This document shows positions 2-12,384 of a DNA stretch of 32,985 nt, piece by piece. Every line of letters starts with the position of its first letter. The stretch's first letter is position 1. Source of the stretch: Promethearchaeota archaeon (GTDB lineage: Archaea; Asgardarchaeota; Hermodarchaeia; Hermodarchaeales; Hermodarchaeaceae); the NCBI GenBank assembly GCA_048939625.1, contig JBHLPH010000012.1, positions 1-32,985 on the forward strand, in the 5' to 3' direction. The notes under the pieces were generated by a model. It ran no database searches, was not told the DNA's origin, and saw only the letters and a list, made by a program, of their open reading frames with translations. The position numbers were made by a program, and so were the translations under genes.

Positions 2-1060
2 AAAATCTGTGAGGACACAAAAATAGACTTCAAACAATTCGCTGATGCGCTTCTCAATGAACCGGAAACCATCTCTACCAAAAAGAATGACCCCTATAAG
101 GTATTTACCCCCTTTTTCCGAAATGCCGTGGGCATTCCTATCAGTACACCCAAAAAGAATTCTTACACGAATTATACAGCACTCCCTCGAAAACACCAAA
201 AGAAACTGACCCAAATACTCACACAGAAAAAAACCGATTATAACGACAGCCTTCTCATTCCTGGAACTCGAGATGCCGGGCTAAACATTCTCGATAATCT
301 TCAGGCTTTCAAAGAATATGAGATAACAAGAGATATTCCGAGTCAACACGGAACAACGCAATTATCAGCTTATATCAAATTTGGACTTTGTTCGATACGT
401 GAAGTTTATTCGGCAATAGTAGACCAACTCGGACCCAGCCATCCCTTGCTCCGACAGTTATACTGGCGAGATTTCTATACTCACATTGCCTATCATTACC
501 CGCACGTCTTCACCGGGGCCTTTAAACGACGATATGATGGCATTCAATGGAACAGGGATAAGATTCTCTTTGAAAGCTGGTGTCAAGGAAAAACCGGATT
601 TCCAATCGTCGATGCAGGAATGCGGGAGCTGAATAGCACCGGATGGATGCACAATCGAGTCCGCATGATTGTAGCATCATTTCTTACCAAAGATCTACAT
701 ATCAGCTGGCAATGGGGCGAGCGATACTTCGCTGAAAAACTCATCGATTATGATCCCGCAGTAAACAATGGAAACTGGCAATGGTCAGCTTCAACCGGGG
801 TTGATGCTCAACCATACTTTCGAATCTTCAATCCATGGCGTCAACAAGAAAAGTATGACCCCGATTGCAAATACATCAAACAATGGATACCTGCCTTTGC
901 TAAAGTGGAACCGACGACTATTCACAGTTGGAATAAATCAACTGAAAACGATTCACACATTAACTATCCCAAACCTATTGTTGACCACAAACAAGAAAGT
1001 CAGTATTCAAAGGAACTGTATAAATCAACATTCTTATCAAACACGAATGAATGGGATTAG
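2..1060 (+). CDS. phr: Deoxyribodipyrimidine (CPD) photolyase, class I-like; 5'-truncated by the window edge
   Basis: Frame is open from position 2 (KICEDTKIDF...PYKVFTPFFRNAV), so the GTG at 128 is internal. FAD-domain motifs: LSAYIKFGLCSIR, QLYWRDFY, GKTGFPIVDAGMREL, GWMHNRVRMIVASFLTK, DYDPAVNNGNWQW, RIFNP. Confidence 0.95.
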   Translation, partial: KICEDTKIDFKQFADALLNEPETISTKKNDPYKVFTPFFRNAVGIPISTPKKNSYTNYTALPRKHQKKLTQILTQKKTDYNDSLLIPGTRDAGLNILDNLQAFKEYEITRDIPSQHGTTQLSAYIKFGLCSIREVYSAIVDQLGPSHPLLRQLYWRDFYTHIAYHYPHVFTGAFKRRYDGIQWNRDKILFESWCQGKTGFPIVDAGMRELNSTGWMHNRVRMIVASFLTKDLHISWQWGERYFAEKLIDYDPAVNNGNWQWSASTGVDAQPYFRIFNPWRQQEKYDPDCKYIKQWIPAFAKVEPTTIHSWNKSTENDSHINYPKPIVDHKQESQYSKELYKSTFLSNTNEWD

Positions 1061-1225: not shown

Positions 1226-1864
1226 TTATTCCTGTTTTACACGGAAGAAGATGATAAGTCCATAGAGGATTTTTGTAATTACATCTAGTGCCGCATAGAG
1301 GATGACTGAGATCAAAGTGGTTAATAACCCAAAGCCTGTTGGAGCAAGGATGAACACTAGTGGAAAGAGTGACCAGGAAATGATGATAAACCACATTAGC
1401 TGGGAATTGATTCCCTCTCTTAACATCCCTCTGAATAAGGTGATGAGAAGGGCAACATAAGCTATCGAACTGAAGGCAAAAAACCACCAACGTTCAATAC
1501 CCGTGATGAATGCAGCGAGAAAACCACAGAACATGACAAGCATCGTCAAAATTGGAATTTTCACAAGTGTCACTGACCGAGTTTGTTTGAGGATCACGGT
1601 GACGGATACAGTAAGTAGGCTACAACTTGCCATATAAAAGAGCCATCGACTCCAATAAATGGGTTCACCAAAACTTGAGGTGACCATAGCAAAGCCAAGT
1701 GCCATTACGACATAGGAGATTGTCGTGACAAAGGCTACCAGTATATCCACAAATGAAAGGAATTCATGGGCTCCTGACCGCAATGAAAGAATTGTAAACA
1801 TAACCGTTGCTAATCCAAAGATTGCAGCCATAACCCAGAAGACAATTAATTCTTCACCAGCCAA
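1226..1864 (-). CDS. Microbial rhodopsin, schizorhodopsin-like, with an F-S-S helix C motif
   Basis: 212 aa with seven hydrophobic segments. Helix C YWSRWLFYMASCSLL has Phe at the BR D85 position, as in schizorhodopsins. Helix F WSLFPLVF; helix G LDVITK198 carries the retinal Lys. TTG start preceded by SD-like GGAGATGTGA. Confidence 0.9.
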   Translation of the reverse strand: MAGEELIVFWVMAAIFGLATVMFTILSLRSGAHEFLSFVDILVAFVTTISYVVMALGFAMVTSSFGEPIYWSRWLFYMASCSLLTVSVTVILKQTRSVTLVKIPILTMLVMFCGFLAAFITGIERWWFFAFSSIAYVALLITLFRGMLREGINSQLMWFIIISWSLFPLVFILAPTGFGLLTTLISVILYAALDVITKILYGLIIFFRVKQE

Positions 1865-1968
1865 ATTTCACATCTCCAGATAGTGAGTTGTGAATAGGTT
1901 AGAGTAGGAACTTCCACTAAAATCTTACAATAACCTTCTAGAGTATACGAAAGGACGCAGGTGATTGT

Positions 1969-2427
1969 TCATTTTAAGTAGTCATTGATGGCATTCAAAA
2001 TTGCAGTCTCTTTTTCTTGAGAAAAGGTTCCAGTGTCACGCCAGAGGATATTTCCATCACAATCTACTAAAAATAGATAGATCGTATTTTCGGTGGGAAT
2101 ACCAAGAGCTTTATCAAATTCAGCTTTATCGATGTATAGCGTGATCGTTCGGGCACGCATTTCTCTATCCCGAATCCCTCCACGCATGCCACTATCGATC
2201 ATCCACTGAGAAATGAAATTATATTGCTTGAGCGTTGGAAGCTCATAAAATTGGACTTGGGGTTGGCTAGAAACCAATTGTTGTAAAAATGGAATCCAAG
2301 TTTCAATTGGCCGAACCTGCCACCGTTGATAAGCCACGATCAGAAAGTTCAATTTACCGGATAAGGTGTCAGGTATTGTGTGAGAATCTCCGTTGAGATC
2401 TTTTCCAGATACTTGTGGAAATTTCAT
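1969..2427 (-). CDS. Thioredoxin/redoxin-fold protein without CxxC, ATP10-like family
   Basis: Redoxin-type start FPQVSGKDLNG, IDSGMRGGI motif and YLFLVDCDGNILWR C-terminal strands. Confidence 0.65.
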   Translation of the reverse strand: MKFPQVSGKDLNGDSHTIPDTLSGKLNFLIVAYQRWQVRPIETWIPFLQQLVSSQPQVQFYELPTLKQYNFISQWMIDSGMRGGIRDREMRARTITLYIDKAEFDKALGIPTENTIYLFLVDCDGNILWRDTGTFSQEKETAILNAINDYLK

Positions 2428-4492: not shown

Positions 4493-4915
4493 ATGAAAGC
4501 CGTTGTAGTATACGATACCAAATTCGGCAACACCGAACAAGTCGCCAAAGGCATTGCCAAGATCCTCAATGCTGACACCATCAAGGTCTCGAACATTGAA
4601 CCCTCGAGCCTCAAGGTATATGATCTCTTTGCATTTGGATGCCCCGTCCATGCCTGGAATATGTCAGCGGGTATGAGAACAGCATTGCAGAAACTCGAAG
4701 GCGAATCCTTCGAAGAGAAAAAAGCGGCAACTTTTGATACGAGGATTGCATCGAGATTTGCCGGTAATGCAGCAGCGAAGATTCAGAAGAAGTTGAAGAA
4801 GCTTGGTTTTGAAATTGTTATGAAACCAGTTCACTTCATTGTGGCAGGACGAGAAGGTCCTCTTGCCGAGGGTGAGATAGAGAAAGTAGAAGCATTCGTC
4901 GCTTTGAAGCAGTGA
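4493..4915 (+). CDS. Flavodoxin-like protein
   Basis: FMN-binding loop VVYDTKFGNTEQVA, GCPVHAW and AATFDTR. Confidence 0.9.
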   Translation: MKAVVVYDTKFGNTEQVAKGIAKILNADTIKVSNIEPSSLKVYDLFAFGCPVHAWNMSAGMRTALQKLEGESFEEKKAATFDTRIASRFAGNAAAKIQKKLKKLGFEIVMKPVHFIVAGREGPLAEGEIEKVEAFVALKQ

Positions 4916-4978
4916 TAACGCCATCAAACAAATATCTCATTTATTTCGCTAGCGATGAGAGTATTCAATTTATTAGCG

Positions 4979-5020
4979 TTTTAATTAGGACACTAAGAAC
5001 AGCATAAGTCCTAAATTAAA
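4979..5020. repeat. Imperfect inverted repeat (hairpin) near the left edge of the accessory island
   Basis: tttaattaggac-N16-gtcctaaattaaa; arms complementary except for one bulged base. Confidence 0.5.
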
Positions 5021-5125
5021 TTCTTTTGAACCTCGTTCTATTACTCTGGAAGGAAGCATTATTCTTTCTATCCACCTTCTAGTAGCAACGGCGGAAGGAT
5101 CATTTCGTCGTGAATCGAGATTTCA

Positions 5126-5202
5126 TTAGGTTTAGCAAAAAATATTTCTTTAGTTTTAACAAAATTTAGGTTTGACAAAAAAATAATTTAGGTCTAACAA
5201 AT
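5126..5202 (+). promoter_or_regulatory. Array of four 15-bp direct repeats (TTAGKTYTRRCAAAW) just upstream of a TATA-like box
   Basis: ttaggtttagcaaaa 5126-5140, ttagttttaacaaaa 5150-5164, ttaggtttgacaaaa 5166-5180, ttaggtctaacaaat 5188-5202, followed by ttttaaaa at 5205-5212. Confidence 0.7.
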
Positions 5203-5285
5203 GATTTTAAAAGTACCAAGCAGATACATGAACATGCAATTGGATGGAGCATGTATGATTAACTGAGAGGAGGTGATAAAAGAAG

Positions 5286-5780
5286 ATGAAAAATAAACTT
5301 ACAACTGCGATTTTGATTTCTGTTCTTTTATGTATTCTGTTGACTCCTATTACGATAGTGTCTGCAACAAAACCCATCGAAATGACAGTCACAGTTACAC
5401 CGGGACCAGCCAACGTGGAAGAAGAGCCGCTACCCAGCGGACTTGTAAAGGTTACCTTCTCTACAACACAAGAGTGGACGGGAGATTGGGTAGGAACTGT
5501 CTGGCAAAGTGGAACAGGCATAGTTAGACTTCCTTCTCTACTTGCGGGTCATGGAAAACCCTTTATGATCATTGATTGCTTTGGGGAGTTCACTGGCACT
5601 ATCAAGGGCAAGACGGGCACGGTAATCTATTACGCACGAAACATTCTAACTCCAGAGGGTGACTATTTTAGTGCAATAATTACAATCCTTGGAGGGACAG
5701 ATGAACTAGGGAATATACATGGGCATGGAACTGTAGGAGAGGGGATAATGCATATCTGGGTTCATTTCGACCCGAGTTAG
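5286..5780 (+). CDS. Secreted beta-rich protein, DUF3224/AOC-barrel-like
   Basis: Signal peptide MKNKLTTAILISVLLCILLTPITIVSA; FTGTIKGKTGT and ILGGTDELGNIHGHG patterns; strong SD GGAGGTGA upstream; T-tract after the stop. Confidence 0.75.
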   Translation: MKNKLTTAILISVLLCILLTPITIVSATKPIEMTVTVTPGPANVEEEPLPSGLVKVTFSTTQEWTGDWVGTVWQSGTGIVRLPSLLAGHGKPFMIIDCFGEFTGTIKGKTGTVIYYARNILTPEGDYFSAIITILGGTDELGNIHGHGTVGEGIMHIWVHFDPS

Positions 5781-5788
5781 TATCATAC

Positions 5789-5807
5789 TTTCCCTCTTTT
5801 TTTATTT
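5789..5807 (+). terminator. Archaeal T-rich terminator
   Basis: tttccctctttttttattt immediately after the stop codon at 5780. Confidence 0.5.
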
Positions 5808-6208
5808 CAATAATCTAGCTGGCTAGCTCTTTCTGAGTTTCAACACAAATACTCAAGTGAACCAAATAGCAATTCGACTTCTATATGTAAACCAACATGA
5901 AGTTTCGTAGAGCCCTTAGCTATGTTACTTAGGACCTAGAGAAATCTACGAGAGAATCTGCGCGTAGGTAATAATCATGCAGACAAGAACCAATTTGATA
6001 TTTGCATGTAACTTTTAATCCAAAGATAAAGAATTGGATGAACCAGAAATAATCGATAATTAACGAATCCTAACTAGCACTTTCTGATTTTTCATTGGAT
6101 TAACGAGTATTTCATTCACGCAAATTTCATTTATCGCTTTTAATTCTACCAGTTACTTTGTTCATGTAAACTCGGGTTGTCACTTATGTCCAGTAAAATA
6201 TGTAAAAT

Positions 6209-6250
6209 AAACACTTTACTGTGAATTTCCGTGGATAAGTGCTAAAACAT
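6209..6250 (+). repeat. Conserved ~42-bp site, copy 1 (putative recombination site or element end)
   Basis: aaacactttactgtgaatttccgtggataagtgctaaaacat matches 9214-9255 at 34/42 positions, including an identical 15-mer tttccgtggataagt. Confidence 0.75.
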
Positions 6251-6272
6251 AGTTAGACGACCAAGTCTCATC

Positions 6273-6300
6273 ACGTGTTAGTTACTACAACATAACACGT
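6273..6300. repeat. 28-bp imperfect palindrome (11-6-11)
   Basis: acgtgttagtt-actaca-acataacacgt; arms complementary at 9/11 positions. Confidence 0.5.
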
Positions 6301-6826
6301 ATTAGTTCTGGGATAAACACCCGCATTCTAAAAATTGTTTTTTCAGAATCTCATATCCTTTCAAACTTACGCTTAATTTAACAGTGTAACCATGTGCTAT
6401 CTCGATAATAATGGCAAGCTACAGGATTCAACGCATACCTTGCTTTCTGAATTACGCTATAAGCAAGAAGCATAATAGTTTTGATGCGGAAAATGTTTGA
6501 GATTAGTTATTTTAGTGCGAATTTACAAACTGCTTCTTGACCGAAGTATCTCCCTTGTTCCCAAGTTCTTCCCAAACATGATATTTTTCTAATCCTAGCT
6601 TGGTTCAAGTGTTAGGTATTGCATCCCTGAAAAGCGTGGTATCGCATTGGATCTGTTTATTTATAATGAAGGTGCCCTTGTTGATACCAAAGTGAATGGA
6701 GAATCATAATTCCTAACACGCTGGTTCGGATTTAATCACAATTTGGCTATTCAGATGCTCTTTTCCTAGCCTGTAAATTATGCTAACTATTTATTTGTAA
6801 ATTTTTTTTCCAAAAGTGGAACATAC

Positions 6827-9070
6827 TTGAGCAATGTGATAAGTATGATTTTACCTGTGAGTCAAAGACAAGTTCTAGCTATAGTATTACTGCTTCTTTT
6901 CCTATTCCCAGTATCGACTTATGCAAGACAGCAATGGTCATTGAATTCTTCTTCTGGTTTAAGTAATGACCTCACAGTACCAATAATACCTGATTTCGTT
7001 ACCTATGAGATCAACATCGTCTTTCTAGGCATCAATGATTCAAGAGTAGATCAAGAGTCGTTATTGGGTCGGTTGCCCAAATGGTATGCCCCCGTCGATG
7101 GCATGTATTGGAGCATAGAGTGTGACATGAACTTCACCCTAGTATACAATCTTGTCTTTGCTGAGCAAGTTCAAATAGATGCTTATCGAACATTTTTACA
7201 CCAGAACTCTGTAGATGATAGGTCTCCGTTCTTCATCCAACCTGAATATCCAATGGCTAAATACATTCACTCGGGGATGGTTGAGTCATATTTAACTGAT
7301 AACGTGAGCAACAAATCATCAGCAACCCTTGTAATCATTGATGCCTACTCATTTGATCCCGCTGGATATGTTCCCTATTATTACAATGCGACCTATAATG
7401 AATTGGATGCAGAACTTGAGGGATGGGTCACCAACCCGATTCCTTGGGCTTCAACCTACCAGATAGCTGGCGGGGGTGAGAAATCAAGACTACTCTGGCT
7501 TGACCTTTCAGCAGGTCCGACTGTCTATTATTGGTCGACTATTGATTCAAGCACCGGAGCTGTAGAAGAGATCTTACCTATCTGGACATATGAAGAACTA
7601 GCAAATCCCGTTGAACAATTAACAGAAGATCTAGTAAAATACATTACTCAAGCAATTGAATGCCGTTTCTTACCATCAACTGACTTTCGAGCCACTATTG
7701 GGATGCCTTTAATCCATTCACCCACCACTGAGATTTTAATGGAAGTTCTTCTAGTAGATTTAGCCAATACCAATTTCAGAATTGAGGAAAGACTCAAGCT
7801 CGACTATATCGCTTCCGAATACGAAAGAGTGAATCCTTACGTGAAATGGACATACACTATATTGGATTGGGACTGGGAATCGGACCCTGATTTTGTATCA
7901 GCCCTTGAAGATTCCAAAGATGATCAAGCTAAGACCTATGACCCGAGGATTCTGATGGAATTTTTTGACCAAGAATACATCAGGCTCTCCCATCCGAGCT
8001 CGCAAACTAGATTAGTACTACCAATCTTCTTGTTATCAATTCCTTTAGGTTGGAATTTCAATCCTGATTGGGGAGGATTTGCTAAAGGCGTCGAAGGCGA
8101 GTTTGCCTACATTTATGGAAAACAAAGTCTGGGTGAACTTGATCCAAGTTATATCAATCAGGAGATCATACCACTTGATGGTCTTCAAATTGAGAGTGGA
8201 GACTTCTTCAATGTTTCAGGATATTTAGGGAGAAGCATTAATTCTGTTGATTTTTCGATGGATGTTCTAAGCAGCACGGTTAGTGTCTATTTTCTAGATG
8301 AATATGGTTACAATCAATATGAGCAGGCTTTACCATTCGTGGATCTTTTGAATGGATCATTTGAGAATGTCTCAGTTGGGTCAGGTAGGGTGGTATCAAA
8401 CTTCGAATGTGCGATTTATGGAAGATATCATCTGGTCATTGAAAATAATGAAAATGAGGTAGCAACTGTTAATATTACATTGAATATAGAGACGGACCAA
8501 TGCTTTGGGTATACTTGGAAAATCATGCATGAGATTGGACATGCTTTGGGGTTAAATCATCCCCATGATGCATACTCTTGGGGCAACTATAACCACCCAA
8601 ATGCTAGCCCAGGGATCTACCTCAATTGGCTTTGGGATATGTCGTATTCTCAGATGAATTACGCGAATCAAGCTCCAACGATTTCTTTAATGGATATTGA
8701 CACGCTTCAAAGAGAGTCCATTACAGGATATTGGGAAGATGCTGTGGGCACATGGAATAATACTGTTGGAATCTCTACAATAAAATACGGTGGAGTTCCA
8801 TCCATCATAAAAGCACATTTATTGAACGCTTCCAAATGTTTAGATCAGAGTGTGGACTATTACTCTAATACTAGCAGGCTAGATAACTACTACAATTCAC
8901 TTCAAAAGGTATTTGACGTGTGGAAGGAGCTTAGATTGGCTTTAGCCGAACTTGCATTTTATTCCCAATTAGAGATTCAAAACACTCTGTTCATTGCTTT
9001 TGTGATAACCGTCATCATCCTAGTACCTTTAATCTATGTAATAATGCGAAGAAGGAGAAAGAGAGAGTAG
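6827..9070 (+). CDS. Membrane-anchored extracellular zinc metalloprotease (metzincin)
   Basis: N-terminal signal/TM segment, HEIGHALGLNHPHD (HExxHxxGxxH), probable Met-turn SQMNY, and a C-terminal TM helix followed by RRRRKRE. The start could be the ATG at 6844. Confidence 0.85.
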   Translation: MSNVISMILPVSQRQVLAIVLLLLFLFPVSTYARQQWSLNSSSGLSNDLTVPIIPDFVTYEINIVFLGINDSRVDQESLLGRLPKWYAPVDGMYWSIECDMNFTLVYNLVFAEQVQIDAYRTFLHQNSVDDRSPFFIQPEYPMAKYIHSGMVESYLTDNVSNKSSATLVIIDAYSFDPAGYVPYYYNATYNELDAELEGWVTNPIPWASTYQIAGGGEKSRLLWLDLSAGPTVYYWSTIDSSTGAVEEILPIWTYEELANPVEQLTEDLVKYITQAIECRFLPSTDFRATIGMPLIHSPTTEILMEVLLVDLANTNFRIEERLKLDYIASEYERVNPYVKWTYTILDWDWESDPDFVSALEDSKDDQAKTYDPRILMEFFDQEYIRLSHPSSQTRLVLPIFLLSIPLGWNFNPDWGGFAKGVEGEFAYIYGKQSLGELDPSYINQEIIPLDGLQIESGDFFNVSGYLGRSINSVDFSMDVLSSTVSVYFLDEYGYNQYEQALPFVDLLNGSFENVSVGSGRVVSNFECAIYGRYHLVIENNENEVATVNITLNIETDQCFGYTWKIMHEIGHALGLNHPHDAYSWGNYNHPNASPGIYLNWLWDMSYSQMNYANQAPTISLMDIDTLQRESITGYWEDAVGTWNNTVGISTIKYGGVPSIIKAHLLNASKCLDQSVDYYSNTSRLDNYYNSLQKVFDVWKELRLALAELAFYSQLEIQNTLFIAFVITVIILVPLIYVIMRRRRKRE

Positions 9071-9138
9071 CTTTTACATGTTGAAGCTGCAAATTTAGGG
9101 TCGAGGAGGAAGTCTTCGAGGAGGTGTGCGTCGTTCAT
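9067..9138 (-). pseudogene. Tyrosine recombinase/integrase N-terminal stub, copy A
   Basis: MNDAHLLEDFLLDPKFAASTCKSY aligns with stub B (MTSTQLREEFLLNTNLTENTRKRY). DNA 9103-9177 aligns without gaps to 10126-10200. Homology ends at the protease stop codon. Confidence 0.65.
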
Positions 9139-9213
9139 CGCACATTGAAACATACTCGCCAAACGTTTAACGTTTATTTGTGACTTACTTTTACTGAATT
9201 TGGGAGGGTTAAG

Positions 9214-9255
9214 AAACACTTTCCTACGACTTTCCGTGGATAAGTATTAACACGT
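9214..9255 (+). repeat. Conserved ~42-bp site, copy 2
   Basis: aaacactttcctacgactttccgtggataagtattaacacgt, 34/42 identical to 6209-6250. The taagaaacactt at 9210 recurs at 10243. Confidence 0.75.
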
Positions 9256-9324
9256 TGTGTTGTGTGATCAGTTTTGGGTAGATTGCGGGCGAAGAGTAAC
9301 AGGTGGAGTCTTGACGCGCTTGCT

Positions 9325-9789
9325 TCAATATTTTCCTTTAATTACAAAAAACGAACCCCGAATTGTTCCAGCTAGTTTAGATTTCTGCCTAGCAAACTTA
9401 AACTTCCCCTCTAACTCTTTGGGTACCTCCATTCCCTCAGAAAGCTTAAAACCAACGGCCCGTTTCTTAGGGTCATCAATCGTATACATGACGTTGACTA
9501 CAAGACCATCCTCATAAAAGACGTAGGCAAATTTGATATTTTCCACTTGAAAACGAGACGTTTCTAAAGGTTTGGCCGCAAACTCAATATCACGTTCTTC
9601 TTTCAAAATTCGGTTCACATAATCAAGGGTCTCCCGGCTTTCGCTAGCTGGTACAACCGTAAATTCATGCTTGTATTTGTTCATAAAGTAACGGGCTTCA
9701 TTAGCACGTAAACCAGCAAGCGCTTCTGCTACAGGTGAAGATTCTAAACCAGCCGTAGACACATTTTTAAAATCAACAATATAGGACAT
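9325..9789 (-). CDS. Conserved hypothetical protein of a Bacillota-type family (often auto-annotated as phage tail protein)
   Basis: Intact 154-aa ORF. Motifs LAGLRANEARYF, KRAVGFKLSEG and KFARQKSKLAGTIRGSFFVIKG are recalled from Bacillus/Listeria-type proteins (recall only, not searched). Confidence 0.7.
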   Translation of the reverse strand: MSYIVDFKNVSTAGLESSPVAEALAGLRANEARYFMNKYKHEFTVVPASESRETLDYVNRILKEERDIEFAAKPLETSRFQVENIKFAYVFYEDGLVVNVMYTIDDPKKRAVGFKLSEGMEVPKELEGKFKFARQKSKLAGTIRGSFFVIKGKY

Positions 9790-9810
9790 TGATATAAATT
9801 CGTGAGCGTA

Positions 9811-9819
9811 TATATTAAA
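9811..9819 (-). promoter_or_regulatory. Archaeal TATA box for leaderless transcription of 9325..9789
   Basis: TTTAATATA lies 22-30 nt upstream of the ATG; no SD sequence is present. Confidence 0.55.
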
Positions 9820-9940
9820 TAGAATCTTTAATTATGCTTTCAACAAATAAAAAAGCAGTATTACAGATATAGCTGACACTATTGTAAGGCTTTTTTACAC
9901 ATTTCGATTTTAAATGCCAGTTATATGGTATTACTGTTAT

Positions 9941-10161
9941 GATGAATCTGAGGAATGATTTGATAATCCATTGGTAGGTTGCAAGACTGGCTTCAGCCTT
10001 GGTGTAAAGGTATTCGAGAACGTCTTATCTCGTGATTTCCTTCACTAGCTTAGAAGCCAAAAAAAGGTTAACGCGCTGAGGAGCCGTTTATAACGTTTCC
10101 TCGTGTTCTCAGTAAGGTTCGTGTTGAGAAGGAATTCTTCGCGAAGCTGTGTGCTGGTCAT
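9941..10161 (-). pseudogene. Tyrosine recombinase/integrase N-terminal (core-binding, SAM-like) domain pseudogene, copy B
   Basis: Reconstructed MTSTQLREEFLLNTNLTENTRKRYKRLLSALTFF/ASKLVKEITR*DVLEYLYTKAEASLATYQWIIKSFLRFI. Frameshift in the A7 run at 10059-10065, in-frame TAA at 10025-10027, no catalytic domain. Confidence 0.8.
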
Positions 10162-10314
10162 GGCACAGTGAAACATACTCGCAGAACGTCTAAAGTTTAT
10201 ACATCTAGCGTTCAAATTGCCTTTTACATGGTTTTCCATTGATAAGAAACACTTATGCCCTGTTTTATACCGTATATATCTGGGTAGGGCACGGCAACGA
10301 CCGTCAGCCCAGCT

Positions 10315-10668
10315 GTGGAGAGCTTGAGCACCGAAGAATATGCTGCGAAAATTCGTGGCTATGTCCGCGAAGCGCGAAAAAAGAAAACCCATCAAGATTA
10401 TTACACAGCGGGTATGCTTTATCAGCGTGCAGCCAAGCTGGCCCACAAGGCGAACCGATCGCCCATGAAATATGAGTCACAGGCTCTAGCATGTTTTGAG
10501 ATGCAGCTTCAGAGTAGTCTAGGGGATGAAGATTTCTCAAAGGCAGCCGATACTTTGGAGAAAATCGCGAAGATGTATGAACAAAGTGGAGATACTCAAC
10601 TGGCCACAGAGCTTCGTTTGCAGGCTAGTTATCTTCGCTTGCGTGGTATTGAGACTCTGGTTTCTTAG
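10315..10668 (+). CDS. Small all-alpha TPR/SNAP-like protein
   Basis: Helical repeats AGMLYQRAAKLA and DFSKAADTLEKIAKMYE; GTG start with an AT-rich box at ~10263-10279. Confidence 0.6.
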   Translation: MESLSTEEYAAKIRGYVREARKKKTHQDYYTAGMLYQRAAKLAHKANRSPMKYESQALACFEMQLQSSLGDEDFSKAADTLEKIAKMYEQSGDTQLATELRLQASYLRLRGIETLVS

Positions 10669-10688
10669 CTTTGAGGTGAAACCGAAGG

Positions 10689-11309
10689 CTAATCTGCACT
10701 CCGTTCCCGTATGACTACAATGAAGATAAGGACTAGTCCAATGGCAACTAGGACATCACCGATTTGGTGCAAAAACAGGGATTCAATGGTAATCAATCCG
10801 AAGAGACTGGTAAAACAAGGGATCCCTGAGCTTATACTTGAGCATTGAAGTTGCGATGAAAATGCAATATTCATGAAGATTACGGCCACTCCCAAGGAAA
10901 AGAGGCCAATTAGCCCAAGGATGGCAAGGACGGGCGTTTTGCTTAACCATTCTCGCAGATGGGACACCACTTGGAACCATTTGAGAGGTTGGGTGTTTTC
11001 ATCTGGCTCAGGTTGGGGGCTCCGATGCAAGAGAAGTGTTAATCCCATAAGTATCATGCTGGTGACGAAGAAGAATATTCCCAAGTAATGCCAGAAGTCT
11101 GGGAACACTCGGAAATAAGGGAACAGGGACCACTGGATAATAATCCGGTAGCGTAGGGCAAAGATGGCCTCATCGAGACAAATCCAGACTGCGAAACTAA
11201 TGATGAAAAAGGGAATGAAGGCAAGGGAGTAGAAAACCCAATCAAGTTTAATGGTCCGAAGTCGTTGGAGTCTTTCACGCCATGAGGGTGTTACTTGATT
11301 CCCCATCAT
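10689..11309 (-). CDS. Four-TM membrane protein with two His-containing hairpin repeats
   Basis: Four hydrophobic helices; WHYLG and LHQIG at equivalent positions; ATGA overlap with the upstream paralogue. Confidence 0.75.
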   Translation of the reverse strand: MMGNQVTPSWRERLQRLRTIKLDWVFYSLAFIPFFIISFAVWICLDEAIFALRYRIIIQWSLFPYFRVFPDFWHYLGIFFFVTSMILMGLTLLLHRSPQPEPDENTQPLKWFQVVSHLREWLSKTPVLAILGLIGLFSLGVAVIFMNIAFSSQLQCSSISSGIPCFTSLFGLITIESLFLHQIGDVLVAIGLVLIFIVVIRERSAD

Positions 11310-11917
11310 ATCAACCTCCCTTGTTGGGATAAGAATCCCAGGACTACCTTAAAGGCGTTAATCGACGCAATGATGAGCAAGCCATAAATTACAAAGAAGT
11401 TACCTAGCATATGAAGGGATAGAGGTTGAATTTCGAAGGTCAAGAATACGTAGATATTAGAAGGTAAGGTTCCCTTCAAGAATTCGCCTTGATAAAGGAA
11501 GGCTTGGTGCATACAAAACCAGACACCCATACTAGCGAGGAAAAGTGCCAAGAAACCAATGATTTTGAACAGATCCGAGTGGCATAAGAAATGGATCAGA
11601 CGACTGTGAAACCGAGGGGAAGGAACATCAGATTTCTCGGTTATAACCAAGGTAAGGGAGATAGGCAGAAAGAGGAGCACTAGCCCAATTGAGGCTAACA
11701 GAATCCCTATATCATGTAATTGCGTTAATGTGAAAGCTGGAAGGAGGACAATGAGTTCGGGGGGTAAATACTGACCGAAATATAGCTCCAGGAAGGCTCT
11801 ATTTAGAAAAGCTTCAACCCCAATGAAGACGAAAATAAGAGCTATAATACTTAAGCCAATAAATCCTGCCAGTTCTCTCCGTTTTGCATGAAGTAGGTCT
11901 GGAGATGTAGTTGGCAG
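11306..11917 (-). CDS. Four-TM membrane protein, paralogue of 10689..11309; probable CTG start
   Basis: The frame stays open well upstream of the listed GTG at 11680 and encodes further TM helices, with no ATG/GTG/TTG. CTG at 11917-11915 has GGAGG 10 nt upstream and gives 203 aa, versus 206 aa for the paralogue. Motifs LHDIG and LHMLG. Confidence 0.7.
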   Translation of the reverse strand: MPTTSPDLLHAKRRELAGFIGLSIIALIFVFIGVEAFLNRAFLELYFGQYLPPELIVLLPAFTLTQLHDIGILLASIGLVLLFLPISLTLVITEKSDVPSPRFHSRLIHFLCHSDLFKIIGFLALFLASMGVWFCMHQAFLYQGEFLKGTLPSNIYVFLTFEIQPLSLHMLGNFFVIYGLLIIASINAFKVVLGFLSQQGRLI

Positions 11918-11934
11918 CGGTTCCGTCCCTCCGA

Positions 11935-12384
11935 TTAAACTAGCCCTTTAATGGATTCATTCACTATTTGATTGATAATTTTTCGTGTGATCCATCCTGA
12001 ACTAATGGATTGTGCGAAATCTAACCGATCAAAGTATAAGCGAAGAGTCTTGACCAAGTGATTTTCATAGATGAGAACTTCAGCTTGTTTTGATTGAACT
12101 TCTTTGCCATCAGGAAGCGTGCAATTGACGATAAACTCCTCAAAGAAAACGTCATCGTCAACCATGATAACAAGGGGGTCAATGGAAATGGTGTTCACAT
12201 GTTGAAATATCCATTCCAGCCATTTACGTGCTCCGCTATGACCATGAAGGGTCAACCCAAGGAGTTTGATTGTGCAGTCTTCATGAAAATAGGTTAGAAT
12301 TTGATCGATTTCACGGGTTTCAATTGCATTGTCAAAGTCTTTTGCCATTCTGAGGAGGGAGTCCTTTGTTTGCACAATAACCAC
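11935..12384 (-). CDS. NTF2/SnoaL-like protein
   Basis: FDNAIETREIDQILTYFHEDC, LHGHSGARKWL and LRLYFDRL pattern. Confidence 0.8.
   Translation of the reverse strand: MVIVQTKDSLLRMAKDFDNAIETREIDQILTYFHEDCTIKLLGLTLHGHSGARKWLEWIFQHVNTISIDPLVIMVDDDVFFEEFIVNCTLPDGKEVQSKQAEVLIYENHLVKTLRLYFDRLDFAQSISSGWITRKIINQIVNESIKGLV

Follow-up and report, generated by a model that had tools for sequence, protein, structure and literature searches.

[quoted passage not shown] The carboxylate that closes this motif on helix C is carried by 58 of 63 SzRs and is missing from the other five (Inoue et al., PMC7148096). In SzR4, residues S74, C75, L78 and D184 proved essential by mutagenesis (PMC8040798), while the exchange E81Q abolishes all transport in SzR1 as well as SzR4 (PMC8040798, PMC7148096). 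The E81D forms of both proteins are functional, no FTIR signal of a protonated carboxyl is seen, and it is the charge of E81, not its protonation, that counts (PMC8040798, PMC7148096), which makes a shift of this charge to an adjacent helix plausible. In the "untrapped inward release" model, the carboxylate of helix C never becomes protonated and acts by its charge once the Leu gate has opened and a water chain has formed (PMC8040798, PMC7148096, 10.1101/2025.10.20.683367). The cytoplasmic helix ends of SzRs are short (PMC8040798), which places the site near solvent.

Two further proteins bear on the role of this carboxylate. AntR (9OR2/9ORK/9OT0), an SzR-family inward pump of the bacterial-type clade, retains the Glu but can dispense with it, as its E81Q form pumps approximately like the wild type and D30 of helix B has been proposed to act instead (PMC8040798). 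Thus, the helix-C Glu is not universal in the SzR family, although the archaeal proteins examined to date (SzR1 and SzR4) do require it; the characterised "GSS_AntR" may already represent a Glu-less pump of the bacterial clade. In the crystal structure of SzR4, the side chain of N34 hydrogen-bonds E81 (PMC8040798). The corresponding residue in the cryo-EM structure of MtSzR (from Methanoculleus taiwanensis) is D40, which is bridged to D87 by two waters and is described as displaced from it (10.1101/2025.10.20.683367).

The rhodopsin gene analysed here lies in a window of 32,985 nucleotides (the whole stretch of DNA that was studied), and its product carries Ser at the helix-C carboxylate position (F-S-S). 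MtSzR, at 54% identity and in the same archaeal SzR clade (99/98), shares with it the MAGEE N-terminus, R73, S80, C81, L84, D40, D194, K198 and an Ile at the SzR4 T195 position; it differs in Y76 and the acceptor D87 (F76 and S87 here), in E102 and F201 (K102 and Y201 here) and in its gene neighbourhood. The Asgard proteins SzR4 and SzR1 (F-S-E) give the best solved match, with a Phe at the position of bacteriorhodopsin (BR) D85, the Ser-Cys pair, the Leu gate, a single Asp counterion and short cytoplasmic helix ends in common, but are only about 33-40% identical to the F-S-S rhodopsin; the SzR4 triad E81-N34-T195 is replaced by S87-D40-I205, and SzR E95 by K102. AntR is about 33% identical, and its D30 would sit one turn nearer the cytoplasm (SzR4 L30, L36 here), with Ala at the D40 position. 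An equivalence of AntR D30 to E34, as offered by a gapped HMMER alignment, was rejected, the helix register putting D30 on L36. The F-S-N and F-S-V lineages (among them P0086, P0067, P0069 and P0089) belong to the same archaeal-type clade and, at 45-50% identity, likewise lack a carboxylate at 87 and have Asp or Glu at 40; they carry Asn or Val at 87, however, and have kept E102 (mostly) and F201.

The gene and its family membership

The coordinates of the rhodopsin gene, its key codons and its neighbours are given in Table 1. The TTG start is sound because the N-termini of the orthologues and of the characterised MtSzR (M/L-AGEEL) coincide with it; several orthologues also begin with TTG, and the only ATG upstream is directly followed by TGA. 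The GGAG site preceding the start is the putative ribosome-binding site of the gene. A start at M12 was ruled out by the conserved MAGEEL N-terminus.

Table 1. Positions in the window of the rhodopsin gene, its functional codons and the adjacent genes
Feature	Position	Strand	Remarks
Schizorhodopsin gene, F-S-S variant	1226..1864	(-)	212 aa + stop codon 1226-1228
TTG start codon of the rhodopsin gene	1862..1864	(-)	orthologues begin at the same place
GGAG, Shine-Dalgarno-like site	1874..1877	(-)	9 nt before TTG; read from the sequence
D40 codon GAT	1745..1747	(-)	helix B; candidate sole cytoplasmic carboxylate; direct reading
R73-W74-L75-F76 codons	1637..1648	(-)	R73 = BR R82; F76 = BR D85 position; invariant in the clade
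S80-C81 codons	1622..1627	(-)	BR T89/T90 positions; SzR4 S74/C75
S87 codon TCC	1604..1606	(-)	position of SzR4 E81 / MtSzR D87 / BR D96
K102 codon	1559..1561	(-)	position of the conserved SzR Glu95
D194-V-I-T-K198 codons	1271..1285	(-)	helix-G counterion Asp and retinal-binding Lys; invariant
D194 codon GAT; K198 codon AAA	1285-1283; 1273-1271	(-)	direct reading
Y201 codon	1262..1264	(-)	clade-specific hydroxyl; Schiff-base Lys + 3; BR F219 position
ATP10-like gene, 152-aa soluble protein	1969..2427	(-)	PF05176 1.4e-06; directly upstream of the rhodopsin gene, same strand
DNA photolyase gene, 3' part	2..1060	(+)	PF03441 1.3e-82; convergent with the rhodopsin gene

The protein matches the Pfam family Bac_rhodopsin (PF01036) over residues 7-207 (1.4e-22), and its best solved relatives by HMMER are SzR4 (7E4G, 1e-29) and AntR (9OR2, 2e-27), with sensory rhodopsin II and BR far behind (~1e-13 to 1e-9). 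Helix C aligns to both SzR4 and AntR without a gap (HMMER; YWSRWLFYMASCSLLTVSV over SzR4 YWTRWAFYAVSCSFLMVEI), and the residue equivalences to SzR4 are R73=R67, F76=F70, S80=S74, C81=C75, L84=L78, S87=E81, D194=D184 and K198=K188. In BR numbering, R73/F76/S80/C81/S87 stand at R82/D85/T89/T90/D96 and D194/K198 at D212/K216. An AlphaFold2 model (from 84 family sequences; mean pLDDT 94.8) has seven helices, helix B comprising residues 34-56, and Foldseek ranks the three 7e4g chains first to third for it (TM 0.88/0.96, rmsd 1.2-1.6 Å).

The protein is therefore a schizorhodopsin by fold, motif residues and phylogeny. It has the fold of a microbial rhodopsin, with seven helices and the Schiff-base Lys (K198) in helix G, Phe at the BR D85 position with a helix-G Asp as the sole counterion (F76, D194), the Ser-Cys pair with the Leu gate (S80, C81 and L84, all invariant), an SzR with short cytoplasmic helix ends as its closest solved structure (7e4g) and a place inside the SzR radiation (SzR clade 100), nested in the archaeal MtSzR-type clade. 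As read from the alignment, it differs from the canonical F-S-E/F-S-D type in one feature, the helix-C carboxylate, the Glu or Asp at the BR D96 position being replaced by S87. The original prediction, made from the sequence alone, had named a schizorhodopsin without the helix-C Glu, with D194 and K198 intact and an Asp inside helix B, and each of these points was borne out: SzR4 is the best match in both sequence and fold and the trees agree, no acidic residue is present where the ungapped alignment puts S87 on SzR4 E81, D194 and K198 align to SzR4 D184 and K188 with their codons read directly, and D40 falls within helix B of the model.

Distribution, selection and the residues at positions 40 and 87

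A word-indexed search recovered 37 further clusters at 71-100% identity, the next ones down standing at 56%. R73, F76, S80, C81, S87, D194 and K198 are present in all 37, and position 40 is Asp in 36 and Glu in one; as F-S-S and D40 are fixed across these 37/37 clusters, the combination is neither a sequencing error nor a chance feature. Among 400 genomes of the phylum, orthologues of at least 78% identity occur in 11 of the 15 species genomes of the window's genus and in none of the four of its sister genus, while other Asgard genomes hold distant SzRs only (31-51%). NCBI labels on members of the genus vary (Hermodarchaeia, Hodarchaeota, Thorarchaeota, Promethearchaeota). The F-S-S rhodopsin is under strong purifying selection, the pairwise dN/dS of 55 pairs among 11 species genomes having a median of 0.06 and reaching at most 0.19, with dS near or past saturation. 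Neither a second rhodopsin nor a heliorhodopsin was found in the window's genome.

Phylogeny was inferred from two outgroup-rooted maximum-likelihood trees (a quick one of 89 rows and one of 54 rows with bootstraps). The F-S-S clade is monophyletic (support 100/99) and nested in a mostly F-S-D archaeal clade (99/98), of which MtSzR (P0043, Y-S-D) is a member. Nearest to it are P0040 (F-S-D, D40), P0041/42 (F-S-D, H40) and an F-S-N lineage (D/E40), with joins of 87-91 that are unstarred. Since the F-S-E and F-A-D clades are basal, the ancestor almost certainly had a carboxylate at position 87. The F-S-N lineage with Asn87 and D/E40 (P0086, P0067, P0069, P0076, P0078, P0081, P0085, P0087) is the closest of the larger groups to the F-S-S clade. 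The NCBI label [Eubacterium] cellulosolvens on one F-S-N member suggests either a transfer to bacteria or a binning error.

Comparison of the 37 clade clusters with 51 sister clusters showed R73, W74, F76, Y77, S80, C81, L84, W164, P168, Y190, D194 and K198 to be invariant throughout, and the hydrophobic cap and gate residues SzR4 L30/L85/L78 are kept as L36, I/V91 and L84. The SzR4 T195 position is Ile, as in MtSzR. By contrast, the clade has a fixed residue, rare elsewhere, at 21 positions, 13 of them in the cytoplasmic third of the helices. Position 87 is Ser in 37/37 clade clusters (replacing the D/E/N of the sisters, where 42/51 have Asp or Glu), position 102 is Lys in 37/37 as against Glu in 47/51 sister clusters, Tyr201 occurs in 36/37 as against Phe in 51/51, and Ser27 replaces the E/N/D of the sisters. 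The residue exchanged at 102, SzR Glu95, has been named as conserved (PMC7148096).

One residue is particular to the protein of the window: S163 (codon 1374-1376 on the (-) strand) is Ser only here and in the 99%-identical P0003, while 35/37 clade members have Phe. Residue 163 occupies the SzR4 F153 position, beside W164 (BR W182), and in bacterial SzRs this position influences both colour and activity. S163 may thus shift the spectrum slightly.

D40 aligns without gaps to SzR4 N34 and MtSzR D40, the numbering of the rhodopsin and of MtSzR being identical through helix C; in P0043, I35, F36, D40, D87 and L91 were checked and match the names in the MtSzR preprint. By the helix-B register (Y51 on BR Y57), we take D40 to occupy the position of BR T46, the classical hydrogen-bond partner of D96. 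In the AlphaFold2 model, D40 and S87 are six and four residues away from the cytoplasmic ends of helix B (its start) and helix C, respectively, which puts the two at the same predicted depth; D40 is the direct neighbour of the lost helix-C carboxylate. Its F-S-D relatives (MtSzR and P0040) carry D40 together with D87, so one of two adjacent carboxylates was lost and D40 was retained. Hence, of the earlier proposal that D40 is a relocated proton acceptor, the part that makes it the acting cytoplasmic carboxylate is the best-supported reading, whereas "relocated" does not hold, as those relatives already had it. A salt bridge between D40 and K102 was also considered and appears unlikely, because helices B and D of BR flank helix C on opposite sides.

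A matching pattern extends over the wider archaeal clade. Not one of 88 clusters of the MtSzR-type clade lacks a carboxylate at both 40 and 87, and all nine sister clusters without one at 87 (F-S-N, F-S-V) have Asp or Glu at 40; this is a consistent pattern and not statistical proof, as the clusters are related to one another and amount to only two or three independent losses. Among the distant, probably bacterial-type SzRs, on the other hand, 16 of 29 representatives have no carboxylate at either position (T, S, V or H at 87; Ala or Pro at 40). The motifs among those 16 (P0116-P0154 set) are FST, FSS, GST, GSS, GSV and FSH. Many of the distant representatives (P0116-P0154) carry a "FYLE/FYLD" segment in helix G, a sequence feature suggestive of a third place where the cytoplasmic charge could sit.

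The reading that we favour, at about an even chance, is that the F-S-S rhodopsin is still a light-driven inward proton pump in which D40 would be the one cytoplasmic negative charge. We infer retinal binding, the direction of pumping and the roles of D40, S87 and Y201. Light would isomerise the retinal bound to K198, and the Schiff-base proton would exit toward the cytoplasm via a transient water chain past the L84 gate, drawn out by a single buried negative charge near the cytoplasmic surface; the Schiff base would then be reprotonated from outside, with D194 as its counterion. In the studied archaeal relatives this charge is the helix-C Glu or Asp (SzR4 E81, MtSzR D87), and here it would be D40, facing position 87 and kept in its deprotonated state by hydrogen bonding to S87 and, perhaps, to the clade-specific Y201; the hydroxyls of both residues are plausible donors. 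[quoted passage not shown] This layout favours the D40 pump, as do the retention of all other residues essential in SzR4, the SzR4-like fold of the model, the strong purifying selection, the near-invariant D40 opposite position 87, the pattern at 40 and 87 in the archaeal clade, the AntR precedent and the kept hydrophobic caps. Counting against it are the replacement of two further acidic positions on the cytoplasmic side (Glu at 102 by Lys, and E/N/D at 27 by Ser), the inactivity of the E81Q forms of SzR1 and SzR4, the displacement of D40 from D87 in MtSzR, the 16/29 distant SzRs without either carboxylate and the failure to find retinal-forming enzymes in the 87.6%-complete genome. Moreover, the 13/21 substitutions in the cytoplasmic third could equally fit a changed function or a new partner surface.

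The strongest competitor keeps inward pumping and, after the example of AntR, has it depend neither on D40 nor on any one cytoplasmic carboxylate: the proton would leave by water after the L84 gate opens, and D40 would be structural. The near wild-type transport of AntR E81Q (PMC8040798) and the short cytoplasmic helix ends, with the site near solvent, speak for it, and the 16/29 distant representatives imply that the carboxylate at 40 or 87 may be dispensable altogether. It is nevertheless rather unlikely, given that position 40 is acidic throughout the F-S-S clade (36 D, 1 E), that position 40 or 87 is always acidic in the archaeal clade and that E81Q inactivates the archaeal SzR1 and SzR4. 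Inward pumping as such, by D40 or independently of a carboxylate, is covered by the two readings together and is considered probable.

Gene neighbourhood and the non-pumping alternatives

At window:2-4915, the genes for photolyase, rhodopsin, the ATP10-like protein, PolX (PHP domain) and flavodoxin are contiguous; elsewhere, the window holds genes of anaerobic-type metabolism. In 9 of the 11 genus genomes, and in the loci L004-L006 (L004:5436-5894 and L006:5444-5902), the gene next upstream of the F-S-S gene is the ATP10-like one. Photolyase is adjacent or nearby in most loci of the genus, with the same arrangement in L004-L007, L019 and L020, and related loci add peroxiredoxin, fasciclin, Staygreen, crtI and crtB. 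In several members, Staygreen (PF12638, Mg-dechelatase-like), fasciclin and peroxiredoxin stand between rhodopsin and photolyase (L003:7841-8299; L004:7877-8344; L005:5660-6127), Staygreen being odd in an archaeon without chlorophyll; the related locus L003 also has UDG and Fpg glycosylase genes. MtSzR and P0055 have unrelated gene neighbours. Judged by its gene content, the rhodopsin locus looks like a light/UV-stress neighbourhood; the synteny extends over one genus, and a functional link between the genes would be putative.

With respect to the source of retinal, a contig of the same genome (C57; L042, G000:C57:1-12489) encodes two UbiA prenyltransferases, two CrtI-like desaturases, CrtB and an ETF-QO-like protein (especially at 4874-12262). 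Its end has crtB, crtI and the ETF-QO-like gene in the order found beside photolyase in L006, and C57 probably adjoins the start of the window. By its annotated genes, this set is closer to a pathway of the bacterioruberin type than to one leading to beta-carotene and retinal. Searches of the genome, which is 87.6% complete, recovered no lycopene cyclase, Blh/BCD or RPE65-type oxygenase; the BCD search also matched no control genome and says little.

This neighbourhood is the setting of the second competitor, which takes up the sensory option of the original prediction. The rhodopsin would be a non-pumping photosensor in which the loss of the helix-C carboxylate stalls proton release and the remodelled cytoplasmic face (S27, K102, G151, N153, Y201) passes the signal on to a soluble protein such as the ATP10-like one, in a light/UV-stress gene island. 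The 13/21 clade-specific substitutions in the cytoplasmic third and the three acidic positions that were lost are compatible with a new interface, and the carboxylate at BR D96 is also missing from classical sensory rhodopsins. The position of the ATP10-like gene, directly upstream in 9/11 genus genomes and not beside MtSzR or P0055, and the presence of photolyase, PolX, peroxiredoxin and carotenoid genes as neighbours point the same way. However, the 87.6%-complete genome gave no match to an MCP signalling domain (PF00015) or an ASRT homologue (PF07100), and in place of the cognate MCP-domain Htr or ASRT beside the opsin of sensory rhodopsins, the neighbours are the ATP10-like and photolyase genes. 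The ATP10-like protein has no known signalling role; its mean column identity is 85%, it has no CxxC motif, and a complex prediction with the rhodopsin scored 0.13 against a mark of 0.32, a value that speaks neither for nor against an interaction. As the synteny is confined to one genus and every SzR transport residue other than that at position 87 is kept, a photosensor is clearly unlikely. The fuller version, by which the clade stopped pumping and became a new Asgard photosensor derived from an inward pump, its less acidic face (S27, S87, K102, Y201) signalling within a light/UV-stress regulon of photolyase, PolX, peroxiredoxin and carotenoid genes with the ATP10-like protein as the first candidate partner, is quite improbable.

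In the third competitor, the rhodopsin would be a leak or a pump that is weak or crippled, its photocycle slow or abortive and its pigment retained for purposes like photoprotection or retinal/carotenoid binding. This would agree with the inactivity of SzR1/4 E81Q, with the finding of no retinal pathway in the genome and with a gene beside carotenoid genes; it is highly improbable, since a dN/dS of ~0.06 and a Schiff-base region and gate that are invariant across species with saturated dS argue for a precise, retained photochemical function. Nothing supports an altered-ion variant, the remaining option of the original prediction. Characterised pumps among Glu-less relatives, which would weigh against that prediction, may well exist, with many distant bacterial-type SzRs lacking the carboxylate, AntR E81Q still pumping and GSS_AntR as a candidate.

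Significance for the model of inward proton release

The F-S-S form is a Glu-less variant of a known SzR family and not a new kind of system. No description of F-S-S schizorhodopsins was found in the literature searched, and the "Evolutionary Kaleidoscope" and ancestral-SzR papers make no mention of F-S-S, F-S-D or F-S-N. The current model of archaeal SzRs holds a negative charge on helix C (E81/D87) to be essential for pulling the Schiff-base proton inward, yet an Asgard genus has removed this carboxylate under strong purifying selection and kept only its neighbour on helix B. The clade thereby constitutes a natural, ready-made mutational test of the proton-release model, which bears on whether the position of the cytoplasmic charge is interchangeable and whether "one outside, one inside negative charge" is a real rule of inward pumps. 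Apart from this, the F-S-S rhodopsin adds a compact protein for optogenetic acidification tools. Furthermore, it links an Asgard rhodopsin with a conserved neighbourhood of light-stress genes and is thereby relevant to the physiological role that inward proton pumps play.
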